Source of the DNA: Candidatus Fimenecus sp.
Lineage (GTDB): Bacteria > Bacillota > Clostridia > Oscillospirales > Acutalibacteraceae
Length of the DNA stretch: 64,000 nucleotides
NCBI GenBank assembly: GCA_045655645.1
Contig: JAZOPS010000051.1
Span: 50,536 to 114,535 of the forward strand
Direction: 5' to 3'
Notes under the pieces: model-generated
The model's input: only the letters and a program-made list of their open reading frames with translations
Databases searched by the model: none
Told to the model about the DNA's origin: nothing
Position numbers and translations under genes: made by a program
In this document: positions 35,287 through 48,942 of the stretch, piece by piece
Layout of the letters: the number at the start of each line of letters is the position of its first letter
Numbering within the stretch: the stretch's first letter is position 1

Positions 35287-36501
35287 TTACTGTTTTGCGC
35301 CGTTGTCAAACATTTCAAGAGTTTTAACACTTGCTGCAAAGCAATCTGCAAGACATCCTTTATTGAGTTTTTCAGGAGTATCAAGTCTTGTATGATAGAA
35401 ATCAGGAAGTGCGTGGTTAAGAGCTGTAACACCTGTTGAACGCATGCCTGCTTGTGCGAATGCTGCTGAGTCAGTTGCACCGCCAAGTGGTGGAACAACA
35501 CCCTTGCCACAGTGAATGCCGAGTTCCTGACAAGCTTCATAGTAAAGGTCTGAAACATCTTTATCAACTTTAACTGTTGAGTTAAGGTCACGATAGTTTA
35601 CCTGCATATATTCAGGTTGTGTGATTGTATCATAAGAATAAACAAACGTTGGAACATCATTAAATTCATGAGCATGTGCTTCACACCATGCTTTAGCACC
35701 ACGAAGACCTGCTTCTTCTGAACCTGTGAGAACAACACCGATTTCTGTGTTTTCAAGTTCAATACCTTCTTCTTTAAGTGCTTTAAGAATTGCGATACCG
35801 ATATAGCAACCTGAGAGGTTATCATTAGCGCCATCAACAACTCTCTTTTTGTTCCACATAAAGTAGAGACCAAACCAGAATGGAACAAAGATAAGTCCCC
35901 AAAGACCAAGTTTTGTTGCAAGTGCAGCATCAGCACCACCTAATTTAATTGCAGCGATAACAATCATATAAATTGCACCAATAATGCAAAGGAACATATG
36001 AATGTCAAAACCAAGATATGTAAACTTATATTTGAATGGCCATTCCCAAGTTGCGTCAGGGTGACCGTTGAAGATAATTCTTCTTTTTACTTCGCCTGTT
36101 GGTTTCTTGAAACCAGCTGCATTGTGACCTGTTAATTCTTTGAAGCATTTATCAAGTGTTTTCTTGTAAAGACCGAATTGTAATACACAAAGAGTAAGAC
36201 CAACCACAATGAAAATGATTGAAAGTACAGGCATAAAGAAATATGATGCAAGTGCTAAGAAACAGCAAGTGATTGTAAAGTAAATCCAACCATAGAATGA
36301 GTCGGGATTTTCTTTGAACTCGTCAACATAAACTTCGTCACAACCCAAGTCTTTCAACTGGTCTGCCATATATTCGCAAGCCTGTTGTTCACCTTTTGTA
36401 CCTGGAGCTCTTTTTTCAAATTTTGTACAGATATGAGTGATTTCGTCAATCATAAACTGCGCAGCTTCATCTTTTTTGTCAATAATCTTTCTTAAATCCA
36501 T
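35287..36501 (-). CDS. M28-family metallopeptidase with internal TM segments
   Basis: Zinc-site blocks FNGHPDATWEW, DGANDNLSG and GSEEAGLRGAKAW. Several hydrophobic helices lie between the N-terminal region and the catalytic domain. Confidence 0.75.
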   Translation of the reverse strand: MDLRKIIDKKDEAAQFMIDEITHICTKFEKRAPGTKGEQQACEYMADQLKDLGCDEVYVDEFKENPDSFYGWIYFTITCCFLALASYFFMPVLSIIFIVVGLTLCVLQFGLYKKTLDKCFKELTGHNAAGFKKPTGEVKRRIIFNGHPDATWEWPFKYKFTYLGFDIHMFLCIIGAIYMIVIAAIKLGGADAALATKLGLWGLIFVPFWFGLYFMWNKKRVVDGANDNLSGCYIGIAILKALKEEGIELENTEIGVVLTGSEEAGLRGAKAWCEAHAHEFNDVPTFVYSYDTITQPEYMQVNYRDLNSTVKVDKDVSDLYYEACQELGIHCGKGVVPPLGGATDSAAFAQAGMRSTGVTALNHALPDFYHTRLDTPEKLNKGCLADCFAASVKTLEMFDNGAKQ

Positions 36502-36600: not shown

Positions 36601-38601
36601 TTATTCAGCAATAACTTCGCGTTCATCTTCTTCGTCTTTTTTTCGTTTAAAGATAATTAGAATAACGAAAAACAAGCTCAAAGCCATTAATGAAATAATT
36701 GTAATTGGTTGACCAAAGTACTCAACGAATGTGTATGGAATATCAATAATAGGAACATCTTTTTTAGGTCCTCCGATTGTGATTACAACGCCATCGTTAT
36801 CTTCGTCACCATCAGGTGTTCCGTCATAATCATCAATATGTCCGTCGCCGTCTGAATCGGGGTCTTTTGAATCAGTGATACCATCATTATCGTCATCGTC
36901 GTCATCCTTATCAGGAATACCGTCGCCGTCTGTATCCTTTTTATCATCATCGCCGTCATCGTCATTGTCACCATCATAAAGTGGTCCGTCAGGAAGACCA
37001 TCGTTATCGTCATCGTCGTCTTCGATATCAGGAATACCATCACCATCAGTATCACGCTCCGGACTGTCGGAGTCATCTACATCAGGAATTCCGTCACCGT
37101 CGTCGTCTGCGTCCCTATCGTCATCAATGCCGTCATTGTCGTCATCATCGTCGATTCTGTCAGGTGTACCATCACCATCTGTATCACGGTCAGGATGGTC
37201 AGGGTCGTCCCTATCTGGAATGCCGTCGTTATCATCATCTGAATCGTCGTCATCCTTTATGCCATCGTTATCGTCATCGTCGTCGATTCTGTCAGGCGTA
37301 CCATCACCGTCTGTATCACGGTCAGGATGGTCAGGGTCATCTTTATCGGGAATACCGTCGCCATCATCATCAGGGTCAGGAATATTATTTAAATCATCAT
37401 TTCCATCAGGAAGACCGTCGTTGTCATCATCGTCGTCAACGCTGTCGGGAATACCGTCACCGTCTGTATCACGGTCAGGATGGTCAGGGTCGTCCTGGTC
37501 AAGAATACCGTCGTTATCGTCGTCAGTATCTTTTGTATCAAAAATACCGTCGTCATCATCGTCAGGGTCACTTCTATCAGGAACACCGTCACTATCTGTG
37601 TCACGGTCAGGATGATTCGGGTCGTTTTTATCAGGTATGCCGTCGCCGTCGTCATCTAAGTCATTGTCGTCATCGAGTCCATCATTATCGTCATCAGGGT
37701 CGATTGCATCCGGCAAACCATCGCCGTCTGTATCACGATTTGGGTGGTCAGGGTCATCCTTATCAAGAATTCCGTCACCATCATCATCAGGGTCAGGAGT
37801 TACATTAGGATTTGGGATATCAGGGTCACCATCAGGGTCTTTAAACTCAGGAACATTAGGGTCCCCCGGGTCAGTATCGTCTGGGTCCTTATCAGGAATT
37901 CCATTCTTGTCATTATCTACAATGCTAAAATCTAAATAAATCTTTTCAGCATCAAAAGGAACAAGTACAACTTGTGTGCCATCAGATGCAGTTGTAAGAG
38001 TTACTTCTTTAACATCGGCTCTTTCAATTACAAAAGAAACGTTTGCAAGAACTTCGCCATCTTTTGAAATTGTAACAAGATGTTTACCATCAGCAATATC
38101 TTTCACAAGATATCGTCCATCAGCATTGGTTTTTGCTGTTACACCGCCAAAGTCAAAGCTTAGCTCGGCACCTTTGACTTCTTTCTTACCAAGATAAACA
38201 GTACCTTCAATATCCACCTTGCTACACTTATCATTAGGGTCAGAAGAACATTTTTCAAAAACAACTTTAACAAAGACATCATTAACAATATTTGTAATTT
38301 TAAGATTGCCACTGACAAATTGTTCTGTAACATCAGCGCCATTTACTTCAATGCTTTCAATGTGATAGCCGTTTTCATAAATTACGCCAAGGTCGATTTC
38401 ACCAAATCTATTAATATTAAATTGTGTACCATCAGGGCATAACTTACCATTTACAAGCACATAACCGCCATCATTATAAATAACGGTAACTGAGTGCTCA
38501 TAAGGAACTGATGTTGAAATAACCGTATTCCCGGCAAATGCTGGTATCGCCATAACAAACACCATAGCTAAAGCCACAATGATACTTATTGCTTTTTTCA
38601 A
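36601..38601 (-). CDS. Secreted, C-terminally tail-anchored protein with a CarboxypepD_reg-like Ig module and a long array of thrombospondin type-3-like calcium-binding repeats
   Basis: TTG start behind an AAGGAGGTGG RBS. Signal peptide MKKAISIIVALAMVFVMAIPAFA. Ig-like block GTVYLGKKEVKGAEL...NADGRYLVKDIADGKHLVTISKDG. About 23 DxDxDG-type loops by my count (DTDGDGIPD, DDDNDGLPD...). C-terminal TM segment ISLMALSLFFVILIIF plus KRKKDEEDE. No LPXTG. Confidence 0.8.
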   Translation of the reverse strand: MKKAISIIVALAMVFVMAIPAFAGNTVISTSVPYEHSVTVIYNDGGYVLVNGKLCPDGTQFNINRFGEIDLGVIYENGYHIESIEVNGADVTEQFVSGNLKITNIVNDVFVKVVFEKCSSDPNDKCSKVDIEGTVYLGKKEVKGAELSFDFGGVTAKTNADGRYLVKDIADGKHLVTISKDGEVLANVSFVIERADVKEVTLTTASDGTQVVLVPFDAEKIYLDFSIVDNDKNGIPDKDPDDTDPGDPNVPEFKDPDGDPDIPNPNVTPDPDDDGDGILDKDDPDHPNRDTDGDGLPDAIDPDDDNDGLDDDNDLDDDGDGIPDKNDPNHPDRDTDSDGVPDRSDPDDDDDGIFDTKDTDDDNDGILDQDDPDHPDRDTDGDGIPDSVDDDDDNDGLPDGNDDLNNIPDPDDDGDGIPDKDDPDHPDRDTDGDGTPDRIDDDDDNDGIKDDDDSDDDNDGIPDRDDPDHPDRDTDGDGTPDRIDDDDDNDGIDDDRDADDDGDGIPDVDDSDSPERDTDGDGIPDIEDDDDDNDGLPDGPLYDGDNDDDGDDDKKDTDGDGIPDKDDDDDDNDGITDSKDPDSDGDGHIDDYDGTPDGDEDNDGVVITIGGPKKDVPIIDIPYTFVEYFGQPITIISLMALSLFFVILIIFKRKKDEEDEREVIAE
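36790..37930 (-). repeat. Degenerate coding tandem repeats (about 129-nt / 43-aa super-repeat of three DxDxDG loops)
   Basis: Repeating unit DPDHPDRDTDGDG.PD..DDDDDNDG..D..D.DDDGDGIPD.D. It produces long spurious ORFs in the other frames and on the other strand. Confidence 0.85.
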
Positions 38602-38647: not shown

Positions 38648-39148
38648 TTATGATTCAGAATACTCTACAGTATATGTGATTGTACCTGTATATGCACCAA
38701 CTGGAGCAGCTCCGAACCCTGCAACTGTAATTGTTGCGTCTGTTCCACCCATATCAGATGCTTTTGCACCATCATTTACGCCTGTAAATGTTGTTTCGCC
38801 TGCACCTGTAAGTGTATATTTAAGTGTTGCTGTTGTATCAGCATTAGTCATAACACCGTTGTTTGCGTCATCAGTATCAGCATCATAAGCAACATCAACA
38901 TTAACCGAAGCACCAACAAGAAGTTGTGATGTAACTGAATAGCTTGCATCATAAGCTGTTGTTTCGTCACCCCAAACAACTGAAATTGTTGCAGGGATTT
39001 GAACTGTGTATGATGCGTCTGTTGTTGCATCATAAGTTGTTTCAACATTAACAATATTTTCACCGACAACAGCTGTTTCTGCAAATGCAGGAACTGTAAC
39101 TGCCATCATCATAACGAGTGCTAATGCAATAGAAATAATCTTTTTCAT
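38648..39148 (-). CDS. Small secreted beta-rich protein, paralog 1 of 7 (unnamed family)
   Basis: Signal peptide MKKIISIALALVMMMAVTVPAFA. Family motifs YTVQIPATISVVWG, YSVTSQL..GASVNVDV and VGAYTGTITYTVEY. AAGGAG-type RBS. Closest of the seven to the C-terminal domain of the giant. Confidence 0.8.
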   Translation of the reverse strand: MKKIISIALALVMMMAVTVPAFAETAVVGENIVNVETTYDATTDASYTVQIPATISVVWGDETTAYDASYSVTSQLLVGASVNVDVAYDADTDDANNGVMTNADTTATLKYTLTGAGETTFTGVNDGAKASDMGGTDATITVAGFGAAPVGAYTGTITYTVEYSES

Positions 39149-39167: not shown

Positions 39168-39656
39168 TTAAGCGATTTCTGCTGTAAATGTAAGAGTGTC
39201 TGTGTAGCTATCGATTGCAACTGATTTCCAATCGTTAAGAGCAACTTTAACTGTTACCTTTGCTGTATCATCATAAACTGCTGAATCTGCTGTGAATATT
39301 GCATTTTCAAGTGTGTAACCAAGTGAGCCACCTGCTGTGCTTGTCATTTTATAAGCACCATCAGCGTCAGTTACTGTAACCTTAACTGCGTCACCTGTTT
39401 TAAGCTGACTTGCAACTGCATATTCAATGTCAGTTGAAGTTGCTTCCCAAGGAAGTGTCTGAGTTGCAGGGATTGTAACTGTATACCAAGCTGCCTCAGT
39501 ATCACCAATACCGTCATTGTCAGTATCTTTCTTTGTATCTGTATTGATTATTGTATCACTACCTGCATTTGAGCCACCTGTAACAGCTGCAAAAGCAGGA
39601 ACACAGATTGCCATCATCATTACAATAGCCATAGCAATTGCTAAAATCTTTTTCAT
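39168..39656 (-). CDS. Small secreted beta-rich protein, paralog 2 of 7 (has an N-terminal DTDNDGIGD calcium-loop motif)
   Basis: Signal peptide MKKILAIAMAIVMMMAICVPAFA. Motifs YTVTIPATQTLPW, YAVASQLKTGDAVKVTV and W..VAIDSYTDTLTFTAE. Confidence 0.8.
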   Translation of the reverse strand: MKKILAIAMAIVMMMAICVPAFAAVTGGSNAGSDTIINTDTKKDTDNDGIGDTEAAWYTVTIPATQTLPWEATSTDIEYAVASQLKTGDAVKVTVTDADGAYKMTSTAGGSLGYTLENAIFTADSAVYDDTAKVTVKVALNDWKSVAIDSYTDTLTFTAEIA

Positions 39657-39682: not shown

Positions 39683-40165
39683 TTAAATATCTGTAAGCTC
39701 TGCATTGAATGTTAATGTTCCCACATAATTATCAATTGATGCTTTCTCCCAATTAGTAGTAGGAATCTGCACCATTACGCTTGATGTTTCTGCGTTTTCA
39801 GGAAGAATAACAGAATTTTTTGTAGTGTATTCTGTTGTACCCTCTTTTAAAGAATATTCAAGGAATGCGGTATTAGTAGCATTTTTCATTTTACCATCAG
39901 TATCAGCAGTTACCGTAACTTTTACACCTTTTCCTGTTGCCAATTGACTGTAAACTGAATATTCAATTTCTTCTTCTGTTTGTCCCCAAGTAATTGTAGC
40001 AGTAGCAGGTATTGTTACTGTAAAAGATGCACCAACTGTTGAACCGTCAACTCTTACAGGGGTACTGCCCATTGATGTAGTTGCATCAAGAGTGGCTGCA
40101 AAAACTGGAACGCAGATTATAAACATCAGCACAAATGCCAGAGCTAATGAAAGTATTTTTTTCAT
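39683..40165 (-). CDS. Small secreted beta-rich protein, paralog 3 of 7
   Basis: Signal peptide MKKILSLALAFVLMFIICVPVFA. Motifs FTVTIPATATITWG, YSVYSQLATGKGVKVTV and W..ASIDNYVGTLTFNAE. Confidence 0.8.
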   Translation of the reverse strand: MKKILSLALAFVLMFIICVPVFAATLDATTSMGSTPVRVDGSTVGASFTVTIPATATITWGQTEEEIEYSVYSQLATGKGVKVTVTADTDGKMKNATNTAFLEYSLKEGTTEYTTKNSVILPENAETSSVMVQIPTTNWEKASIDNYVGTLTFNAELTDI

Positions 40166-40187: not shown

Positions 40188-40658
40188 TTAAGCGTTAACG
40201 AGCTCTGCTGTAAATGTGATTGTTCCTTCATAAGTAGCGATTGAAGCTGCTGCCCATTCACCTGCATCAATTGTAAGGTTGAATGTGTGAGACTCATTGT
40301 TTACAACTGCACTATTTGCAATACCTGTTGTAGCGTCAGCAACTGCAAATTCGATTGTTTCGTTTGCAGCGTTTGTAAGGTCTTTTGCCTTTTCAAGTGA
40401 AACCTTAACGCGTTTGTCGGTCTGCACCTGGCTTGTAATCTTATACGCTCCTGCTTTTGTTGTATCACCCCAAGTAAGGTCAACTGCTGCAGGAATTTCA
40501 ACTGAGTATGTTCCATCGCCTTTGTCTGCAACACCGTCAACTAAAACTGTTGAACTGCCTGACTGTGCATTAACATCAAGTGTTTTTGTAGCAAAAGCAG
40601 GAACACAAATTGCCATCATCATAATGAGGGCAAGAACTAATGAAATAATCTTTTTCAT
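40188..40658 (-). CDS. Small secreted beta-rich protein, paralog 4 of 7
   Basis: Start trimmed to ATG 40658 (MKKIISLVLALIMMMAICVPAFA), 8 nt after AGGAG. Motifs YSVEIPAAVDLTWG, YKITSQVQTDKRVKVSL and W..ASIATYEGTITFTAE. Confidence 0.8.
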   Translation of the reverse strand: MKKIISLVLALIMMMAICVPAFATKTLDVNAQSGSSTVLVDGVADKGDGTYSVEIPAAVDLTWGDTTKAGAYKITSQVQTDKRVKVSLEKAKDLTNAANETIEFAVADATTGIANSAVVNNESHTFNLTIDAGEWAAASIATYEGTITFTAELVNA

Positions 40659-40682
40659 AAAATGCATCTCCTGACCATTAAA

Positions 40683-41159
40683 TTATGCATCAACAACTGT
40701 TGATGTGAATGTAAGTGTATCGCTATATGTATCAATAGCTGCTGCATTCCAAACTGTTGCATCAACATTGATACTATAATTAAATGTTGCATTTGTAACA
40801 ACAGGACCTGTTGTTTTACCTGTAGTTGTACCGCCAAGAGTATAAGCAAGAGTAGCGTTATCAGCGTTTACCATGTTAAGTCCGTCGCCTGTATCAGCAA
40901 CCACAACCTGAACTGCTTTACCTGTTCTAAGGTTTGAATTAACTTTATAATCAAAGTTTGTTGTTGCAGTGCCCCAAACAATGTTCATTGTTGCAGGATA
41001 AGTAACTGTATAAGTACCATCGCCTGTAATTGCAGATGTATCTGTCTGAACTGTTGCAGTACCTGACTGTACATTAGCGTTGAGTTCTTCTGCAAAAGCA
41101 GGAACCATAACAACCATCATCATAACGAGTGCCATTACTAAAGAAATAACTTTTTTCAT
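40683..41159 (-). CDS. Small secreted beta-rich protein, paralog 5 of 7
   Basis: Signal peptide MKKVISLVMALVMMMVVMVPAFA. Motifs YTVTYPATMNIVWG, YKVNSNLRTGKAVQVVV and W..AAIDTYSDTLTFTS. Confidence 0.8.
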   Translation of the reverse strand: MKKVISLVMALVMMMVVMVPAFAEELNANVQSGTATVQTDTSAITGDGTYTVTYPATMNIVWGTATTNFDYKVNSNLRTGKAVQVVVADTGDGLNMVNADNATLAYTLGGTTTGKTTGPVVTNATFNYSINVDATVWNAAAIDTYSDTLTFTSTVVDA

Positions 41160-41189: not shown

Positions 41190-41690
41190 TTATACTCTTT
41201 CAATTTCTGCTGTATATGTGATAATATCACTGTATTCTTCAACAACTGCTGTATTCCAGTTATCTGCAGAAATTGCAACTGTAACCGTCTTTGTTGCTGC
41301 AGGGTAAATTGTAGGAACATCTGCTGAGAAAGTAATGCCTTCACCTGCAAGTGCGTAAGGGATTTCATAAGCACTGTCAACAGTTTTCATAACTAATGCG
41401 CCTGACACTGTAACTTTAACTCTGCCATCTCTCTTAAGGTGTGATTCAACTGTGTATGAAACATCAGTTTCTTCTGTACCCCAAGGAATTGTTGTGTCAG
41501 CAGGGATTGTAATTGTGTATTCTTCTGCTTCTTTGTCGCCGACACCATCACCATCAGTGTCTTTTAATGTTGATGTGTCGATAACTACGTCTGCACTGTC
41601 AGGATTAGCGTTAAGTTCAACTGCAAATGCTGGAACCATAACAGCCATCATCATAACAAGTGCCATTGCGAATGATAAAATCTTTTTCAT
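41190..41690 (-). CDS. Small secreted beta-rich protein, paralog 6 of 7 (has an N-terminal DTDGDGVGD calcium-loop motif)
   Basis: Signal peptide MKKILSFAMALVMMMAVMVPAFA. Motifs YTITIPADTTIPWG, YTVESHLKRDGRVKVTV and W..AVVEEYSDIITYTAE. Confidence 0.8.
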   Translation of the reverse strand: MKKILSFAMALVMMMAVMVPAFAVELNANPDSADVVIDTSTLKDTDGDGVGDKEAEEYTITIPADTTIPWGTEETDVSYTVESHLKRDGRVKVTVSGALVMKTVDSAYEIPYALAGEGITFSADVPTIYPAATKTVTVAISADNWNTAVVEEYSDIITYTAEIERV

Positions 41691-41724: not shown

Positions 41725-42174
41725 TTAAACTGCGTCGGTGTATTCAGCAGTGAATGTTAAAATGTCACTGTGTTTACCACTTGCAGCGTAAAGCCATTCT
41801 GTTTCTTCAACCTCTACTGAAAGAGTGAAACTTTCACCATAATCACCGGGGAAGAAAGAGATGTCTTCGCTAAGCAAACTGTATGCAATAGTTTTTTCGC
41901 TATCCGCCTCGTTTACCAGTTTGAAATCATTTTGTGAAGAAACTGAAACCTTTACCATCTTACTAGGTTCAATAAGCATTTTGGTTGCCGTTACTTCACC
42001 AATGTCCATAGCAGTTGTTTGCCACGGAATTTCAATATCTGCAGGATAAGTTAGTTCGTATTCTGCTCGGTCAGCCTTTGTGGAAATTTCCATAGACTGA
42101 CTACTAGCGAATACCGGCATAATGCAAAGTACAAGCATTACAGCCGCTAATCCTACTGAAAAGAATTTTTTCAT
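41725..42174 (-). CDS. Small secreted beta-rich protein, paralog 7 of 7 (most divergent)
   Basis: Start trimmed to ATG 42174 (MKKFFSVGLAAVMLVLCIMPVFA), 9 nt after GGAGGAG. Motifs YELTYPADIEIPW, KMVKVSV and W..AASGKHSDILTFTAE. Confidence 0.75.
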   Translation of the reverse strand: MKKFFSVGLAAVMLVLCIMPVFASSQSMEISTKADRAEYELTYPADIEIPWQTTAMDIGEVTATKMLIEPSKMVKVSVSSQNDFKLVNEADSEKTIAYSLLSEDISFFPGDYGESFTLSVEVEETEWLYAASGKHSDILTFTAEYTDAV

Positions 42175-42195
42175 TTCTGTCATCTCCTCCCCTTA

Positions 42196-45100
42196 TTAAC
42201 TTGTTATGTCGACTGTATAAGTCAACTGCGTACTATATGCGCCAACAGGAACGCTGTTCCAACCTGTAACTGTAATGCTTGGTGCATTGGTTGGTTTTGT
42301 TCCATCGGCTACATCGCCCGTAAATCTTTCTGTACCAAAATTAGCCTTTGAATAAGCTAATTCATAAGTAACTCCTGTGTCGTCATTGATAAGTTTATCA
42401 GTTCCATCATTGCTTACTGAGCTTACGCTTACTAAAAGCACATTACTACCAAGCGTTGCTTTAACAGAATACGAAACATCAACAGGACCGTTTGTATCCC
42501 AATCAATATCAACTTTTGCAGGGATTTCAACTTCATAGATGATTGGGTCTGTACCATTTGTTGACTGGAAAACAACATCAACTTCTATTACTTCAAGAAT
42601 ATTACTTGAATCTGCAAGAACTTCTGAAATATCTGTTCCGTCAGCAGTTTTCTCTGCCACAACAGCAGAATCAACTGCATAGAATTTAAGTGTGTTTGTA
42701 TAAGTTGAACCTGTCGGCACTTTTGCTGCCTCGGATGCGTCAACACTAATTGTATAAGGATACCTTGTAATGCTTGATGAGTCACCATTGTTATAAGAAG
42801 CAACCCACGCTGTAACTATTCCATCTGCATTCTGATAGTCTACAAGACCATCTGCGGTAACACCGTTATACATCAAGTCTTCGAAAGCTTTGTATGTTGA
42901 ACCGCCTGTTTGAGTCCATTTAAGGCTTGACTGTGCATAAAGTTCAACACTTCTGTTAAGTCTTGTTGCAACATAACTTAAGTCGATATATGCAGTATAT
43001 TGCATTTTTTCCGCTGAATCGTTATTAAGCACAATTTTTTCAAGTGCCGCGTTAGATTCATTTACTGATGCAAAGCCCTCTATATGTGGTAAGAGAAGTG
43101 CTAGGTCTGCATAAGCGTAGTTAAGTTCATCAACGAGAGCATATCGTCTTAAGAATGCCTCATATTGACCTAAACAATACTCAATTTCATTAAGAGTAGA
43201 TGTATCAAGCACCGTTTTTGCCGCAATTTTAGACGAAACATCTGAATATGCATCTTTAATTCGTTTTTCGTATGTAACGATACCACCTAGAACAGTTTCA
43301 CCTGCTTTTGGTACAATAGTTGTTGAGTTATCATAAATAGCTTCCGCAGCATCGTACATATTCATATATGCGGCAGCCGTGTCAGTATCATCAGACAAAA
43401 ACATCTTACCAAAAACGCTTATATCGGCATACATATCTGTATAGTATTTCAGAGCGTTTACAGTATCTCCATTTTCGTCTGTAATTTCTGCTTTATAACT
43501 AACCATTCTCAAAAAGTCTTTTGCATCAACTACTCCGTCACCATTGTTATCATCTTCAGTGTCAATGATTCTGTCAGCATCTTCGTCAGAATGAGAACTC
43601 AAGCCATAAATATTTATGATGTTTGACTTAAATGTTGCAACATCTGCGATGATACCGTCTTTTTCAACGCCCTCATGAACATCTGCATCGCCGCCAATAA
43701 GTATTGCACGATTTGCAGCATTATAGGCATTGTAAAGTGCATTATATTCATCCGTGTACCCTGATTCAAAGGTTACGCCGTCTTTATACATAAATGCATT
43801 TCTTTCTGCAATACTTAGTCGGTGTAAACCTTTTTCATAAATTGTAACTACCTGAGCCGCTTCTTCAATACTTGCAAAGCCTAATTGTTGTAAATAATTT
43901 TCTTTGTGTTCTTTATACAAATCATGGATAGATTCACTGTTAACAGAGTACGTTTTTGCTACTGCTGAAATTTCAGCTATATCTGTTTGCAGTTGTTGTA
44001 TCGCTGTAGCATCCGCTGTTGCTGTGTAATAAGGTTGCCATTGCTCTTTCTTTATTTCGTTAGTGTAGTCCGTATAAAGAGCTCTGTATTTTTTCTCAAG
44101 TATTTCTTCTTTACAGTATTTAACTTCAGGAATTCCTTTTTGGTAATCCGAAAGTGCTAAAAAAGCATTATTACATGCCTCAAATGATGCCTTGAATTCT
44201 GTCTCCGAAGCATACGGGTCAATAGTTGAAACCATTTTTTCAAAGTTATTTGAGTCAACAGTCTTAACTCCAAAATACTCATCCATATTAGTAATATAGA
44301 TTCCATTATCCTGATTTAATTCGCCGTTACAGTTTGTGTTATTACTTACACGAGTTTGACATTTAGGGTCATAAGTGAAGCCTAAACCATCAATAACAAC
44401 TTTCTTGCCCTCGTTATTATTAGACTCATCCCAAACCGAAACCTTAACCTGTTTAATCTTATATCCATCATCAAGAATGTTGTCAAGGTATTCAAAGTTT
44501 TTATCCAGATTAGCCACACCGCCATCAGTTGGAATTCTAAAGCATGTAAGAGGAATACGAATAAAGCCTTTGTAACCTTGTAATGTATTAAGTTCAGAAG
44601 GCGCAATTGTACAAATACCAGGGTCAACTTCTCTATAAAATGTATGTGCTGCCTCAATATCAGTTTGCGTAATTTTTAGCTGTTGTTTTTCCCATTCACC
44701 ATTTTTATCAAGAAGATAAATAACCGGGAATTCACCCTCTCTGCCAGCACAGAAATAACAGTTTACATCTTTTCCATTTGAATCAGAAAGAATAAACTTA
44801 ACGTTAAAATTAAGATTGCTTACCTCTGAAAAGTCAACATACATTACGAAAGAATTAGGAATAACACCTTCACCATATCTAGTTTTAACTTCTTCTTCCG
44901 TACCTTGCGAAGCATTAGTTTTAACTGCAATACCACTCAAATCAAGTCCGGGAAGATTTCCCCAAGTATCTGCCTCTGCACCTAAATAGGTTGTTGAAAG
45001 AGTAGCAATTTTCCAGTCTTTATTTGCAGGGTCGCATACCAGATTTCCCTTAAGGTTAATCATTGCACCTAATGAATTATTAAATCCTTTATTTGTAATC

Positions 45101-47652
45101 TGAGCATCCATTCTTGAGAAGTATGTTCCCAAGCTACTATCAACAGTTTCACCTGTAGGTCTATAATCGTACGGTGACCAACCAATAGCTGTACCGCCCC
45201 ATTCACCAGGTTGGTCGATAACCTTACCCGAAACATATGTTGTGAAATTACCTGTACTATTTATATCGGTAGGTTTATTGTCTTGGTATGCAGGATAGTC
45301 ATCATAGTACATATCCGACAACTGACCGTATGAATAATTTGTTTCAAAGTCGTTGAATGGGATAAATGGATAAGCACCGATTGACTGACCTGTCTTAACC
45401 TCTTCACCAACAATAAAATCATAAAGTTCAAGGAATTTTGCTTTTGCATCTGCACCAAGCAATTCGTGGTGAGAAAGGTTAAATGTTTCATAAATTGCCA
45501 TCAACTGTTTAAGTGTTGACTGTAATTCTTTATCTGTATGGTCTATAAACTCAGGATTGGGGAGTTTTTCAATTTCATTCTCAAAATAAACAACGGCATT
45601 GTAGTTAGATGCAGCATCATCTGAATAAACAAAACCATGGAATTGCTCGACTAATTTATATCTATTATATGCCTCTGTATGGCCCAGAGTTTTCAACTTT
45701 TCAATAGCTTGTTCAACTTTGTCTTCATTTGAAAGAGCTGAACTGTTATTTATGCCAAAACATTCAATATAATTAATGATAATGTCATCAATCATATCCT
45801 TTGCACCAAAGTCGTTAAGTGAAGGAATTTCACCAAAATATTGCATTATATATTGTGCAACTGCCTTTGGAACTTCAGTAGTTCTGTCATAGAAGCCTGA
45901 CATTTTGATACCATAAGTACCACTATTATTGTTAGATATATTAACTTCCGAAGGGAATGCTAATGAGGAAGTTGAAACTACATATCCATTAGCATCAAAA
46001 TCAGCGCTACTACCAATATTTTTTTTGCAGAACATTACTTGGTCAATGTAGAAAGATTTATGAACTGAGTCCGCTGACCAATCTGCAACCTGAACACCTG
46101 CGGAAACAAGGTCTTCAATAGCAAATTGAGGGTCTGTAACTGTATATGTAGTTCCACTTACCGAAACTACATTAGCATCACTTAGAATTTTACCCATTTC
46201 ATGAGTATTTGTTTGGAAAATTCTAGTTGATTTCTCAGTACGGTCATAAATAATATATGCATTGTTTATATTTGTTCCTGCTGTGTTTACCTTAAATCCA
46301 ACTTTTGAATCATAAGTCTCTGATGCTACTGTTCTTGTATTGCCCTCAGCATCTTGAAGGACCAATGTTGAGCCTGATGGGAAATAGTGCTTATTGGCAT
46401 AAGCGTTAAGGCTATTTGCATTACCATTACCTTCACTTTCCCAGTTGCCCATATCATTATCTGCAACAATATATTGGTCAGATTGTAAAAGAAAGTAATC
46501 GATAGGGATACGAACAAATCCTTTATAACCCGAAAGATTTGTGAAATAACCATCAGTCATCGAGGTTGATTCCCAAAGGCCATCAGCATTCTGAATATAA
46601 ATTCCGTTGCTTATTGTTCCCGTGTTTTTCCCAGCTACTGCCGCAGTTGAGAAAGTTGTGCCATAGTGTGATGTGTAGTTTGTAGTGTCATCTCTCCAGT
46701 GTTCGACACTTTTTTCGTTAGCTGATAAAGTGAATGCAAATTTATTAATTTGAACACGACTTAAGTCAACATAAAACCAAACTTCTTCAGCATTTGTAAA
46801 ATCATAGTGGTCACGGCTCCATGTAGTTGTTCCTACATAAGGTGTTCCGTTGTATGCATTAGCAATCCAATAACGATAGCCAGCACTACCATTATAACCC
46901 ATGCCAGCCATCTGACCATTAACATCAATTAACTCCGCACTCTGACGTTCGGAATAGTCTGGTACCGTTGCACCGTTATTAGACTGCGAATTGCTCTTAT
47001 CAACATCCGCATTACCCTTTTGCTCAAAAAGAAGCATTTCACGAACAATCCAGCTCTCATTAGGAGAAAAGTCGTCGTTAATAATGTAATAAGGTGTTTC
47101 TGAAAGGAGTGTATGAATTTTATCTGATACCCAACCATCGCTATCTACAGCCTGAATTGATATGTCATAACTTGACTCAATTTTATAGCCTTCAAGTCCT
47201 GTGAATGCACCCGGCCAATAATAGATTGAGTTAGGCAAGTTGTTTCCTTCTGTATTGTCAACTGTAAATGTTCCTCCTGCAGGAGTTGTAGATTGACTTA
47301 CATCAATATTTTCTGTCCAGATTGGTTCGTGATTACCGTCATCATCCATTCTTGTAATTTCAAAAATGTAATTTGTAATCCTCTTTTTAGATGGACTTGC
47401 TGCAGTATAACTATCCCATGTTGCCGCAGGGGTTGCATGTGGGAATGAAACCTTTATACTACCATCAACATTAAGAGTTGCAATAAAGGATGTATTAGAC
47501 GCAGCATTGTTGCTACCGTCACCCCAATATGGTGCAGGGTCATAAGCACCTCCACCGATGGCTCCAGCCATCATAAGTGGAACAGATGTAACAATCATTA
47601 CAACCGCTAATATGAGCGCTATACACTTTTTGGAAGATAATTTTTTCTTCAT
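42196..47652 (-). CDS. Giant secreted protein (1818 aa) whose C-terminal ~125 aa is a copy of the small-paralog domain
   Basis: Signal peptide MKKKLSSKKCIALILAVVMIVTSVPLMMAGA. Two internal homologous modules (YVDLSRV...GYKGFVRIPIDYF and YVDFSEV...GYKGFIRIPLTCF). Long Tyr/Ala/Glu-rich regions that look helical. One EF-hand/dockerin-like loop, DDNNGDGVVDAKD. The C-terminus (YEVEIPAKVDIDW ... VSYSVKATL ... W..VPVGAYSTQLTYTVD) matches the paralog motifs. No enzyme motif recognised. Confidence 0.85.
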   Translation of the reverse strand: MKKKLSSKKCIALILAVVMIVTSVPLMMAGAIGGGAYDPAPYWGDGSNNAASNTSFIATLNVDGSIKVSFPHATPAATWDSYTAASPSKKRITNYIFEITRMDDDGNHEPIWTENIDVSQSTTPAGGTFTVDNTEGNNLPNSIYYWPGAFTGLEGYKIESSYDISIQAVDSDGWVSDKIHTLLSETPYYIINDDFSPNESWIVREMLLFEQKGNADVDKSNSQSNNGATVPDYSERQSAELIDVNGQMAGMGYNGSAGYRYWIANAYNGTPYVGTTTWSRDHYDFTNAEEVWFYVDLSRVQINKFAFTLSANEKSVEHWRDDTTNYTSHYGTTFSTAAVAGKNTGTISNGIYIQNADGLWESTSMTDGYFTNLSGYKGFVRIPIDYFLLQSDQYIVADNDMGNWESEGNGNANSLNAYANKHYFPSGSTLVLQDAEGNTRTVASETYDSKVGFKVNTAGTNINNAYIIYDRTEKSTRIFQTNTHEMGKILSDANVVSVSGTTYTVTDPQFAIEDLVSAGVQVADWSADSVHKSFYIDQVMFCKKNIGSSADFDANGYVVSTSSLAFPSEVNISNNNSGTYGIKMSGFYDRTTEVPKAVAQYIMQYFGEIPSLNDFGAKDMIDDIIINYIECFGINNSSALSNEDKVEQAIEKLKTLGHTEAYNRYKLVEQFHGFVYSDDAASNYNAVVYFENEIEKLPNPEFIDHTDKELQSTLKQLMAIYETFNLSHHELLGADAKAKFLELYDFIVGEEVKTGQSIGAYPFIPFNDFETNYSYGQLSDMYYDDYPAYQDNKPTDINSTGNFTTYVSGKVIDQPGEWGGTAIGWSPYDYRPTGETVDSSLGTYFSRMDAQITNKGFNNSLGAMINLKGNLVCDPANKDWKIATLSTTYLGAEADTWGNLPGLDLSGIAVKTNASQGTEEEVKTRYGEGVIPNSFVMYVDFSEVSNLNFNVKFILSDSNGKDVNCYFCAGREGEFPVIYLLDKNGEWEKQQLKITQTDIEAAHTFYREVDPGICTIAPSELNTLQGYKGFIRIPLTCFRIPTDGGVANLDKNFEYLDNILDDGYKIKQVKVSVWDESNNNEGKKVVIDGLGFTYDPKCQTRVSNNTNCNGELNQDNGIYITNMDEYFGVKTVDSNNFEKMVSTIDPYASETEFKASFEACNNAFLALSDYQKGIPEVKYCKEEILEKKYRALYTDYTNEIKKEQWQPYYTATADATAIQQLQTDIAEISAVAKTYSVNSESIHDLYKEHKENYLQQLGFASIEEAAQVVTIYEKGLHRLSIAERNAFMYKDGVTFESGYTDEYNALYNAYNAANRAILIGGDADVHEGVEKDGIIADVATFKSNIINIYGLSSHSDEDADRIIDTEDDNNGDGVVDAKDFLRMVSYKAEITDENGDTVNALKYYTDMYADISVFGKMFLSDDTDTAAAYMNMYDAAEAIYDNSTTIVPKAGETVLGGIVTYEKRIKDAYSDVSSKIAAKTVLDTSTLNEIEYCLGQYEAFLRRYALVDELNYAYADLALLLPHIEGFASVNESNAALEKIVLNNDSAEKMQYTAYIDLSYVATRLNRSVELYAQSSLKWTQTGGSTYKAFEDLMYNGVTADGLVDYQNADGIVTAWVASYNNGDSSSITRYPYTISVDASEAAKVPTGSTYTNTLKFYAVDSAVVAEKTADGTDISEVLADSSNILEVIEVDVVFQSTNGTDPIIYEVEIPAKVDIDWDTNGPVDVSYSVKATLGSNVLLVSVSSVSNDGTDKLINDDTGVTYELAYSKANFGTERFTGDVADGTKPTNAPSITVTGWNSVPVGAYSTQLTYTVDITS

Positions 47653-47692: not shown

Positions 47693-48511
47693 TTATTTTA
47701 CAATAAGGTCTGTTTTTACTACAAAATTGTTAAGCGGAGTTCTTGCCTGGTCATAAGAATATGGCTGCTGATGAACTATCGCCTTGTATTCGCCCGCTTC
47801 AAGTGAACGGGAAATGTTAAATCTTGAAACTGAATAACCCGGTTGAACAAGCCCTGACTGATAAAGTTTTTCATCGCTTGCATCAATAACACCGTTTTCA
47901 TTGTTGTCAAGGTAGATTGTAAATACTACAAAACAGATATCTTTATTTTTTTCAGAGTTTGAAAGGATAAAGTTCTGCTCAACCTGACCTGCTTTGAAAT
48001 TAATCTGAGCAATACCATTCATTGTGACATTCTTTGAGCCCATATCTTCAACTTTATCTGGTAAATCAAGTTCACCTAAACCTTGTTGCTGATTGACATC
48101 AAGAATACTTGGAGTTGTTGTGGTTGGCTCTTCATCACCACCATCAATCAATATTCCGAGACCTGAAATTAATCCCGCAAGCACTAAAAGGCCAAGCACG
48201 ATTAACATAACAAATGCAAGAATATTATCTTTTTTAACTGCGATAAATGAGCCAGACTCAAGTTCAATATAGCCTATTGTCTTATATCTTGCAGAAGATG
48301 TTGGTTTATAAACTATTTCTTCAATATCATTTGAAGTGATTGTGCCGATTTCATCTTTACCATAAGCCAACTGACCGACAACACGGATACCTCCGTCTGG
48401 ATAAAGAGCTTTCATCTCTTTAGCAGTATAATACCCCTGTTCAAAGCCCGTCTCTTTATTGTAATATAATTCTGTATAGTCGTTACCGTTTTTAATAATA
48501 AATATTGCCAA
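47693..48511 (-). CDS. Bitopic membrane protein: cytoplasmic N-domain, one TM helix, extracellular Ig-like domain with an EF-hand-like loop (first gene of the operon)
   Basis: Start trimmed to TTG 48511, 7 nt after GGGAGGG; the ATG given in the track lies inside the promoter. TM segment ILAFVMLIVLGLLVLAGLISGLGILI, a Thr-rich linker, and the loop DNNENGVIDASD. Confidence 0.7.
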   Translation of the reverse strand: MAIFIIKNGNDYTELYYNKETGFEQGYYTAKEMKALYPDGGIRVVGQLAYGKDEIGTITSNDIEEIVYKPTSSARYKTIGYIELESGSFIAVKKDNILAFVMLIVLGLLVLAGLISGLGILIDGGDEEPTTTTPSILDVNQQQGLGELDLPDKVEDMGSKNVTMNGIAQINFKAGQVEQNFILSNSEKNKDICFVVFTIYLDNNENGVIDASDEKLYQSGLVQPGYSVSRFNISRSLEAGEYKAIVHQQPYSYDQARTPLNNFVVKTDLIVK

Positions 48512-48569
48512 AACGATACCCTCCCAAAAATAAATATAATTGAAGATAATATTACTATTATAACAAAAT

Positions 48570-48598
48570 ATTTTACCCCTTTTTATAATATTTGTCAA
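48570..48598 (-). promoter_or_regulatory. Near-consensus sigma-A promoter of the ten-gene operon
   Basis: Minus strand reads TTGACA (48598-48593), a 17-nt spacer, then TAAAAT (48575-48570). It lies about 55 nt upstream of the TTG start. Confidence 0.7.
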
Positions 48599-48913: not shown

Positions 48914-48942
48914 ATTATATGAAATTATTTTAAAATTGTCAA
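48914..48942 (-). promoter_or_regulatory. Consensus sigma-A promoter of tRNA-Leu
   Basis: Minus strand reads TTGACA (48942-48937), a 17-nt spacer, then TATAAT (48919-48914). It ends 17 nt upstream of the mature tRNA 5' end. Confidence 0.75.

Follow-up and report, generated by a model that had tools for sequence, protein, structure and literature searches.

Why should a secreted protein of 1,818 residues end in the very domain that, on its own, makes up a row of small secreted proteins encoded directly behind it? This question is raised by a locus in a stretch of 64,000 nucleotides from Candidatus Fimenecus sp. (contig JAZOPS010000051.1), the whole of which is called the window here and to which all positions refer. 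On the minus strand, between 36.6 and 48.6 kb of the window, lies a tight cassette of genes that all run in the same direction, in the order: a membrane protein of 301 aa, a giant open reading frame (ORF) of 1,818 aa (42196..47652, stop codon 42196-42198), seven small paralogs denoted p7 to p1, and a protein of 666 aa. A preliminary description, made from the letters of this DNA, had claimed that the giant ends in a copy of the small-paralog domain and had proposed that it docks, as a tip adhesin or a cargo protein, into an assembly of the small subunits. The first claim holds: the last ~130 residues of the giant are truly homologous to this domain, the sole one in the seven secreted proteins encoded downstream. 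The reading favoured here, with a probability of roughly 55%, is that this domain serves as a non-covalent docking or polymerisation module, through which the giant would join a stalk of small paralogs.

The homology is seen in pairwise and in profile comparisons. The C-terminal domain of the giant (aa 1685-1818; 42199..42600, minus strand) aligns through its residues 1706-1815 with residues 47-162 of p1 (166 aa; 38648..39148, minus strand), the last gene of the array, with 37% identity over 119 columns (BLASTP with composition-based statistics, E 1.5e-10, 50 bits). Colinear matches of 28-34% identity cover the same span in p6, p2, p7, and p5; the match to p3 is weak (21%, E 2), and p4 aligns to residues 1689-1718 only. 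A hidden Markov model (HMM) of the seven mature paralogs scores 53.8 bits against the giant at aa 1689-1817 (window 42202-42588; E 1e-18, one target) and matches nowhere else in it, any other 138-aa window reaching 2.3 bits at most. The C-terminal 138 residues taken alone reach 61.3 bits, compared with a mean of 0.8 (standard deviation 1.7, maximum 10.5) for 1,989 scored composition-preserving shuffles of the same residues. A chance resemblance brought about by a Thr/Val/Ala/Asp-rich composition, for which a test had been set beforehand, can be dismissed: the region is rich in V, T, S, and D, but the similarity stays significant against the shuffles and after composition correction in BLAST, and the C-terminal match is present in every giant examined.

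The finer points of the preliminary description agree with this result. The three family motifs occur in the giant in the same order (Y-x-V-x-I-P-A...W; L-x-Y-x-L; W...Y-x-x-T-[LI]-T-[FY]-T), and the segment IEVDVVFQS, said to sit where the paralogs have their N-terminal segment, is aligned by the HMM to their N-terminal strand and modelled by AlphaFold2 (AF2) as part of a 12-residue strand (aa 1685-1696, 42565-42600) with a predicted local distance difference test (pLDDT) value of ~86. All peptides quoted earlier are present in the ORFs 42196-47652 and 38648-39148 (both minus strand). The paralogy is visible also in the DNA, at 42498-42532, and a BLAST comparison of the giant with itself did not find internal repeats. 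The closest relative of the giant's C-domain is p1, as had been noted: among the small paralogs it matches that domain best, both in the window and in 23 of the 24 related loci from which a giant's C-domain was available. In a neighbor-joining tree of 228 domain copies, calculated without bootstrap, the 24 giant C-domains are monophyletic, and a clade of 38 p1-type copies is their sister; the mean distances of the giant C-domains to p1 types and to p2 types are similar.

By its sequence, the domain defines an undescribed family of gut Clostridia. A profile search that covered 1.84 billion representatives returned 787 proteins at E<=1e-3, of which 255 reach E<=1e-10; the 150 representatives listed from the 787 have the domain at the extreme C-terminus without exception. 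The closest genomes are metagenome-assembled genomes (MAGs) of 'Candidatus Fimenecus' and of other gut or caecal Clostridia. Wherever the contig reaches (23 of 23 loci), the array of 5-11 small paralogs starts directly behind a protein of 1,632-1,835 aa that carries the domain at its end, and the paralog types keep a syntenic order between loci; the array is flanked by the 301-aa protein (19 loci) and by the Asp-rich transmembrane protein, of 666 aa in the window (19 loci). Further loci were found with a degenerate DNA pattern for YT[VI]TIPA...W, giving 66 true stretches in 52 assemblies that include Ca. Fimivicinus, Ruminococcaceae UBA bins, Eubacterium sp. CAG:180, Ruminococcus sp., Oscillospiraceae, an Anaerovoracaceae bin, and a bin labelled Butyrivibrio crossotus; there, too, a large protein with the domain at its end comes before each array wherever the sequence extends far enough to include it. 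The arrangement on which the tip-adhesin or cargo proposal was built, a passenger with a C-terminal subunit domain ahead of an array of subunit-only genes, is real and conserved in every related locus reached. In each small paralog, the signal peptide is followed by a conserved N-terminal beta strand with the consensus V-x-T (e.g. TIINTDT, AIVKTST), a variable and often Asp/Gly-rich linker that separates the strand from the domain, and the domain itself.

The only name given to the family in any source is 'hypothetical protein'. All proteins of the cassette were scanned and show no supra-threshold Pfam or NCBIfam domain, an M28-family neighbour being the exception, and neither do five further giants; among 127 family members, Pfam returned signal-peptide-driven matches only, besides real LRR_5 and ubiquitin passengers. 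No PDB sequence relative was found for the family profile, the giant, or the 301-aa protein, and the assembly collection has no record that matches the giant exactly. The family is not described in the literature that searches on donor-strand pili of Firmicutes, Bacillota, or Clostridia turned up; quinone-transporting filaments and the F-ENA appendages were rejected as a match, since the respective papers describe different systems.

The domain also follows passengers of other kinds. Leucine-rich repeats (LRRs) of the BspA type precede it in P0130, P0149, and P0160 (~465 aa; Pfam LRR_5 E 4e-87), and these fusions retain a paralog-type N-terminal strand between passenger and domain; a related-locus search with an LRR fusion returned only an unrelated LRR protein. 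Ubiquitin-like passengers precede the domain in P0233 and P0241 (~235-253 aa; Pfam ubiquitin E 1e-20 to 2e-26), which represent two clusters with 118 and 146 member sequences. The gene for the ubiquitin fusion stands alone and occurs in loci (L028-L031, L044, L061, L079, L086, L104) from Ca. Fimenecus stercoravium, Oscillospiraceae, Anaerovoracaceae, and the 'Butyrivibrio crossotus' bin. One complete Oscillospiraceae chromosome (OZ007023.1) carries the ubiquitin fusion (L086) and, elsewhere, a locus with giant and array (L058).

Passenger and C-domain of the giants have been shown by sequence comparison to evolve independently and to recombine as separate modules. In the closely related locus L001, the small paralogs are 96-100% and the flanking proteins 99% identical to those of the window, whereas the giant (L001:1905-6953) shows a mere 26-35% identity in its passenger; it agrees fully with that of the window in the first 16 residues and to ~95% in the last 85. 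Since the ends agree and the passenger diverges, one allele has taken the place of another from the signal peptide to mid C-domain, with recombination breakpoints near residue 17 and halfway through the C-domain. The reverse is seen in L019 and L021, where the passenger is 62-73% identical to that of the window and the C-domain only 39-45%. When 253 pairs of loci are compared, the identity of the C-domains shows no correlation with that of the passengers (rho -0.08 and 0.01) and does correlate with that of the adjacent small paralogs (rho 0.39-0.51). Such a pattern would be expected if the C-domain must fit the local set of subunits while the exposed head is exchanged freely.

These data bear on a quite improbable alternative, in which the proteins are independent secreted immunoglobulin (Ig)-like proteins: the domain would be a stable beta-sandwich module, a 'stalk' or a decoy, spread by duplication and fusion, and the giant and the paralogs would not interact. 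In its favour, the family is extracellular and rich in Thr, Val, and Asp, domains of the Ig-like type are widespread building blocks, and the contact between giant and paralogs is something we infer. This alternative is hard to reconcile with the decoupled histories of passenger and C-domain, with the strict C-terminal position of the domain in every architecture, and with the conserved gene order, flanking membrane proteins included, in at least 19 loci; furthermore, a giant without an anchor signal would otherwise be released from the cell.

Structure prediction gives the domain a fold. The AF2 model of p1, based on an alignment of 43 sequences, has a mean pLDDT of 80.7 and exceeds 90 over an all-beta domain (aa 45-166), the N-terminal strand (aa 32-36) being modelled at ~53 only. 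In Foldseek searches, all 12 best PDB matches of this model are chaperone-usher pilins or adhesins (CS17, the pilin domain of PapG, FimG, FimF, FocH/FimH, AfaE, DaaE, SefD). The last 294 residues of the giant (aa 1525-1818) were modelled with a pLDDT of 76, rising to 85-95 over the all-beta C-domain, and comprise, in this order, a pre-C beta domain, two short helices, the 12-residue strand LEVIEVDVVFQS (aa 1685-1696), and the C-domain. All 14 best PDB matches of this model are two-domain chaperone-usher tip adhesins or tandem pilins (FimH, FocH, CsuE, CfaB-CfaB, CfaE-CfaB, PapG), 13 of them at E 2e-6 to 2e-4 with probabilities of 0.96-1.00 and the 14th at E 1.5e-3; as a single domain, the C-domain matches the FimH pilin domain, CfaB, and CS17 at template-modelling (TM) scores of 0.46-0.48. 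The prediction for the family domain is an Ig-like beta sandwich with chaperone-usher pilins as its nearest counterparts. The fold may also occur a second time, in degenerate form, in the pre-C domain, which the two-domain Foldseek matches cover as well. The idea stays tentative because hhalign gave only a weak match, with the terminal hairpin of the pre-C domain in register with that of the family (P 0.008, probability 5%); the pre-C region of several other giants gives weak in-register HMM matches (10-12 bits in L058 and L099, up to 11.6 bits overall), and the underlying alignment is shallow, a homologue search with the giant's last 294 aa having returned three fragments only.

The tip adhesins of chaperone-usher pili (FimH, FocH, PapG, CsuE, CfaE) are the closest analogues in architecture. 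As in these proteins, an N-terminal passenger is followed in the giant by a C-terminal domain that is homologous to separately encoded small subunits and predicted to be of the Ig-like pilin type, and the adhesin part is more variable than the pilin domain. The tip-adhesin layout is found in the giant's sequence and in its predicted structure alike; in the small paralogs, the predicted fold best matches chaperone-usher pilins, and a conserved N-terminal strand is present that may complement a neighbouring subunit. The systems differ in other respects. The passenger comprises 1,500 aa here versus ~160-200 aa, 5-11 different small subunits are encoded, and the giant retains a strand equivalent to the N-terminal strand of the subunits. 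Sequence similarity is lacking: fimbrial subunit families (e.g. Pfam Fimbrial, PF00419) are not matched by the window proteins and are not among the families matched by the 127 members, and no Pfam domains of PapD-like chaperones or outer-membrane ushers are found in the cassette or its neighbours. Clostridia are monoderm bacteria, which possess neither a periplasm nor an outer membrane.

The preliminary description had also likened the giant and the small paralogs to CscC and CscB of WxL clusters. Such clusters typically hold one small WxL protein. The analogy is apt at the level of architecture: in both systems the small proteins consist of a signal peptide and the domain only, the large protein carries the domain at its C-terminus behind passengers that include LRRs, and a partner with Ig-like domains and a C-terminal transmembrane helix is encoded, the topological analogue of WxLIP in the cassette being the 666-aa protein (signal peptide, beta domains, C-terminal transmembrane helix). 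Membership in the WxL family is refuted, however, by motifs, Pfam searches, and the top structural matches. The WxL domain is C-terminal, spans 160-190 aa, and contains two conserved Trp-x-Leu motifs (PMC9772566), whereas the domain described here has a length of ~120-135 aa, and two W-x-L motifs are found in 0 of 127 family members (one motif in 3 of 127), the copies of the window reading WGD, WGT, WDT, WNS, etc. Pfam WxL (PF13731) is not matched at E<=1 by the eight window proteins, neither WxL nor DUF916 nor DUF3324 is among the 25 Pfam families most matched by the 127 members (E<=10), and neither flanking membrane protein matches DUF916 or DUF3324. The top 50 structural matches do not include a WxL chain; the one chain of 9i25 listed there is WxLIP, with a probability of 0.21. 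Further differences are the many small paralogs instead of one, the lack of an LPxTG partner, and the occurrence in Clostridia rather than in Lactobacillales and Bacillales.

A functional kinship with WxL proteins is an alternative in its own right, albeit an unlikely one. It holds that the domain is a non-covalent module for binding the cell wall (peptidoglycan or polysaccharide), so that each protein would bind to the wall alone and no fibre would be formed; binding would perhaps be stabilised by a strand of the membrane-anchored partner, as by WxLIP for WxL. The logic of the cluster matches that of Csc/WxL clusters (PMC9772566; PMC10599100), some large WxL proteins carry LRR passengers as well (PMC9772566), the domain is always C-terminal as in WxL, and the solitary ubiquitin-fusion genes suggest that it can work without an adjacent array. 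Apart from the missing W-x-L motifs and Pfam matches, the top structural matches point to chaperone-usher pilins and not to WxL, and a pure wall anchor leaves 5-11 passenger-less paralogs in conserved order unexplained.

Polymers that assemble without an usher offer further comparisons. TasA/TapA fibres of Bacillus, archaeal bundling pili, threads, and Ca-dependent cannulae are built, as predicted here, of secreted beta-sandwich subunits with an N-terminal strand. In archaeal cannulae, which are chaperone-free donor-strand polymers, Ca2+ sites lie at the subunit interfaces (doi 10.1101/2024.12.30.630787), and the cassette encodes Ca-loop-like Asp/Gly-rich linkers and an anchor candidate with thrombospondin-type-3 (TSP3) repeats. 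TasA is likewise reported as a precedent for a chaperone-free donor-strand polymer. Unlike the cassette, TasA and the archaeal polymers are essentially homopolymers and have no giant, passenger-bearing subunit; moreover, no Pfam or NCBIfam match to Peptidase_M73/TasA was obtained, no gene for a SipW-type signal peptidase was found nearby, and TasA-type entries are absent from the top 50 Foldseek matches. The F-ENA appendages of endospores possess tip (F-BclA) and anchor (F-Anchor) proteins (PMC11844507) and thus exemplify a Firmicute fibre whose accessory proteins share a docking element with the subunits for capping and tethering. Their subunits show a head-neck fold with N-terminal hook peptides, are made by the mother cell, and are bound to the spore, whereas the parts of the cassette all carry Sec signal peptides and are predicted to have another fold.

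Considering these precedents, the docking reading can be formulated as a sequence of steps. The small paralogs would assemble into a short, ordered, heteromeric stalk, probably held together by beta-strand complementation. This kind of glue is the most plausible one, because the match to the pilin fold is combined with a conserved N-terminal strand followed by a variable linker, and because strand insertion is predicted for the WxL system (PMC10599100) and chaperone-free, Ca-assisted donor-strand polymers are known. The giant would plug into the stalk via its C-terminal domain, as FimH, PapG, or CsuE join their pili, and display a passenger of 1,500 aa that strains can exchange. In the small paralogs and in the giant, the last strand is followed by 2-6 residues and by no LPXTG-type sorting signal or any other anchoring signal, and the sole products of the cassette with a transmembrane anchor are the flanking 301-aa and 666-aa proteins; the Asp-rich 666-aa protein, with its C-terminal transmembrane helix, would tether the assembly to the membrane and span the wall. 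Judged by sequence, Ca2+ may be involved, as is hinted at by Asp/Gly-rich loops in the linkers of p2 and p6 and by TSP3-type repeats in the 666-aa protein. A more specific picture is put forward as a tentative possibility: gut Clostridia may build a pilus-like stalk without chaperone, usher, or sortase, from 5-11 subunits of pilin fold that are encoded in the order of assembly, joined by donor strands, rooted by a Ca-binding Asp-rich protein, and capped by a protein that ends in a pilin domain and whose passenger strains swap; a 'dark' adhesin of 1,500 aa, LRRs, or even a secreted ubiquitin-like domain would serve as passengers.

Several points weigh against a docked giant on a paralog stalk. 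The structural evidence consists entirely of predictions; the Foldseek scores of the p1 model are weak (E 0.03-0.2, probability up to 0.96, TM-score 0.37-0.48), and the global TM-score of the giant's two-domain model is low (0.22-0.33), which suggests that the model has its domains in a different orientation. Neither the giant nor the LRR and ubiquitin fusions have lost the 'donor' strand, which may be an ordinary first strand of the domain; this counts against the reading because a strict FimH-type tip subunit would not need the strand. Near the cassette, no chaperone, usher, sortase, or SipW-type peptidase is encoded, and no obvious major subunit stands out among 7-11 paralogs. Since the ubiquitin-fusion genes are solitary, docking of their products would have to take place in trans. 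The co-inheritance of C-domain and small paralogs could be mere linkage, and the genomes studied are MAGs. The proposal of a tip adhesin or docking cargo has gained from the FimH-type predicted fold, the modular recombination, and the other passengers; polymerisation, strand exchange, the tip position, the anchoring partner, and the contact between the domains are what we infer.

The giant itself begins with a signal peptide (approximately 47560..47652, minus strand; MKKKLSSKKCIALILAVVMIVTSVPLMMAGA...), whose first 16 residues are those shared with L001. The passenger (aa ~32-1548; 43009..47559, minus strand) has no recognisable domains and is strongly strain-variable. It contains a single dockerin- or EF-hand-like loop (DTEDDNNGDGVVDAKDFLRMV; aa 1368-1410, window 43423-43551) below the Pfam threshold (E 0.53). 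Display by a cohesin-dockerin pair was rejected, given this single loop (11 bits versus a cut-off of 22.9) and the lack of a cohesin match. The pre-C beta domain (aa ~1540-1661; 42670..43035, minus strand) consists of AF2 strands with pLDDT values of up to 92 at aa 1650-1661 and is followed by the two short helices modelled by AF2 at aa 1662-1680 (42613-42669, minus strand).

The array, on the minus strand throughout, starts with p7 (152 aa; 41725..42183; HMM score 151 bits), whose orthologue comes first, directly after the giant, in all loci; in the window, the genes of the giant and p7 are in frame with each other, with two stop codons between them. It continues with p6 (166 aa; 41190..41690), p5 (158 aa; 40683..41159), p4 (159 aa; 40188..40667), p3 (160 aa; 39683..40165), and p2 (162 aa; 39168..39656) and ends with p1. 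Arrays of 9-11 paralogs contain an internal p1-like copy (L006, L007, L009, L011, L013, L014, L016, L019-L023) and look like two modules (p7 p6 p6' p5 .. p1', followed by p4 p3 p2 p1), the seven-gene array of the window being a shorter version. The N-terminal linkers of p2 (39486-39527) and p6 (41521-41563) each hold one DTD(G/N)DG(I/V)GD loop, DTDNDGIGD in p2 and DTDGDGVGD in p6. These loops resemble the TSP3-like repeats of the 666-aa protein, at the DNA level too; because of this resemblance they may be Ca2+ sites.

The 666-aa protein, the candidate membrane anchor or stalk (36601..38601, minus strand), has its gene immediately behind that of the last small paralog in 19 loci. It starts with a paralog-like signal peptide and, at the mature N-terminus, a conserved strand that reads TVISTSVPYEH in the window and TVISTSVPYEH, KLTTEVPYEH, or QIGTTVPTEH among 15 aligned orthologues. 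Two beta domains and ~370 aa of DxDxDG (TSP3-like) repeats follow, and the C-terminus is formed by an IPxT[FL][AV]E motif, a transmembrane helix, and a KRKKDEE tail. A weak Pfam match to CarboxypepD_reg was noted, and a PDB sequence search gave a TSP3-like match to the OmpA-family entry 5wtl. The motif, helix, and KRKKDEE(D/E)-rich tail (window 36601-36790, 15 orthologues) resemble a sorting signal. The C-terminus matches no NCBIfam sorting-domain model, genes for a sortase or exosortase were not seen nearby, and the cassette and its neighbours encode no sortase domain. Two long plus-strand ORFs (36981-37808 and 37127-37615), rich in His/Arg or Ser, were rejected as genes; they are shadows of the GAY-codon repeats of the 666-aa gene.

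At the other end of the cassette, the conserved membrane protein of 301 aa (47693..48598, minus strand) has orthologues of 56-99% identity and lies directly upstream of the giant in 19 loci. It comprises a cytoplasmic N-domain, a single transmembrane helix, and a beta-rich extracellular domain of ~150 aa and may be an assembly or anchoring factor. The annotated start of its gene is a TTG codon, and the orthologues are 272-273 aa long; because they are no longer than this, the true start probably lies downstream of the TTG. A promoter-like site at 48914..48942 (minus strand), ~300 bp from the annotated TTG, matches the sigma-70-like sequence TTGACA-17-TATAAT in 12 of 12 positions; it is a consensus match only, and the number of such sites in the region is not above chance. 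The cassette is flanked by housekeeping genes (RadC, MTHFR, an MFS transporter, and oxaloacetate decarboxylase). A gene for an M28-family peptidase with transmembrane segments (window 35287-36501) comes after it and recurs in 12 related loci, with 88-90% or 30-34% identity.

The cassette is a conserved, unannotated surface system of gut Clostridia, probably with an adhesin or cargo protein that has a subunit-type C-terminal plug. It offers a way into proteins of ~1,700 aa that would otherwise be dark matter altogether, and the C-terminal domain is a simple search key for all cargoes of the system; the secreted ubiquitin-like and LRR cargoes on the same plug are of interest with regard to host interaction. 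If the docking reading is true, abundant but uncultured gut Clostridia would possess a surface-display system that has gone unannotated, and it would be explained why strains exchange the exposed head yet keep the plug. The logic of an adhesin with a pilin-domain plug would then work in monoderm bacteria without the classical chaperone-usher machinery.

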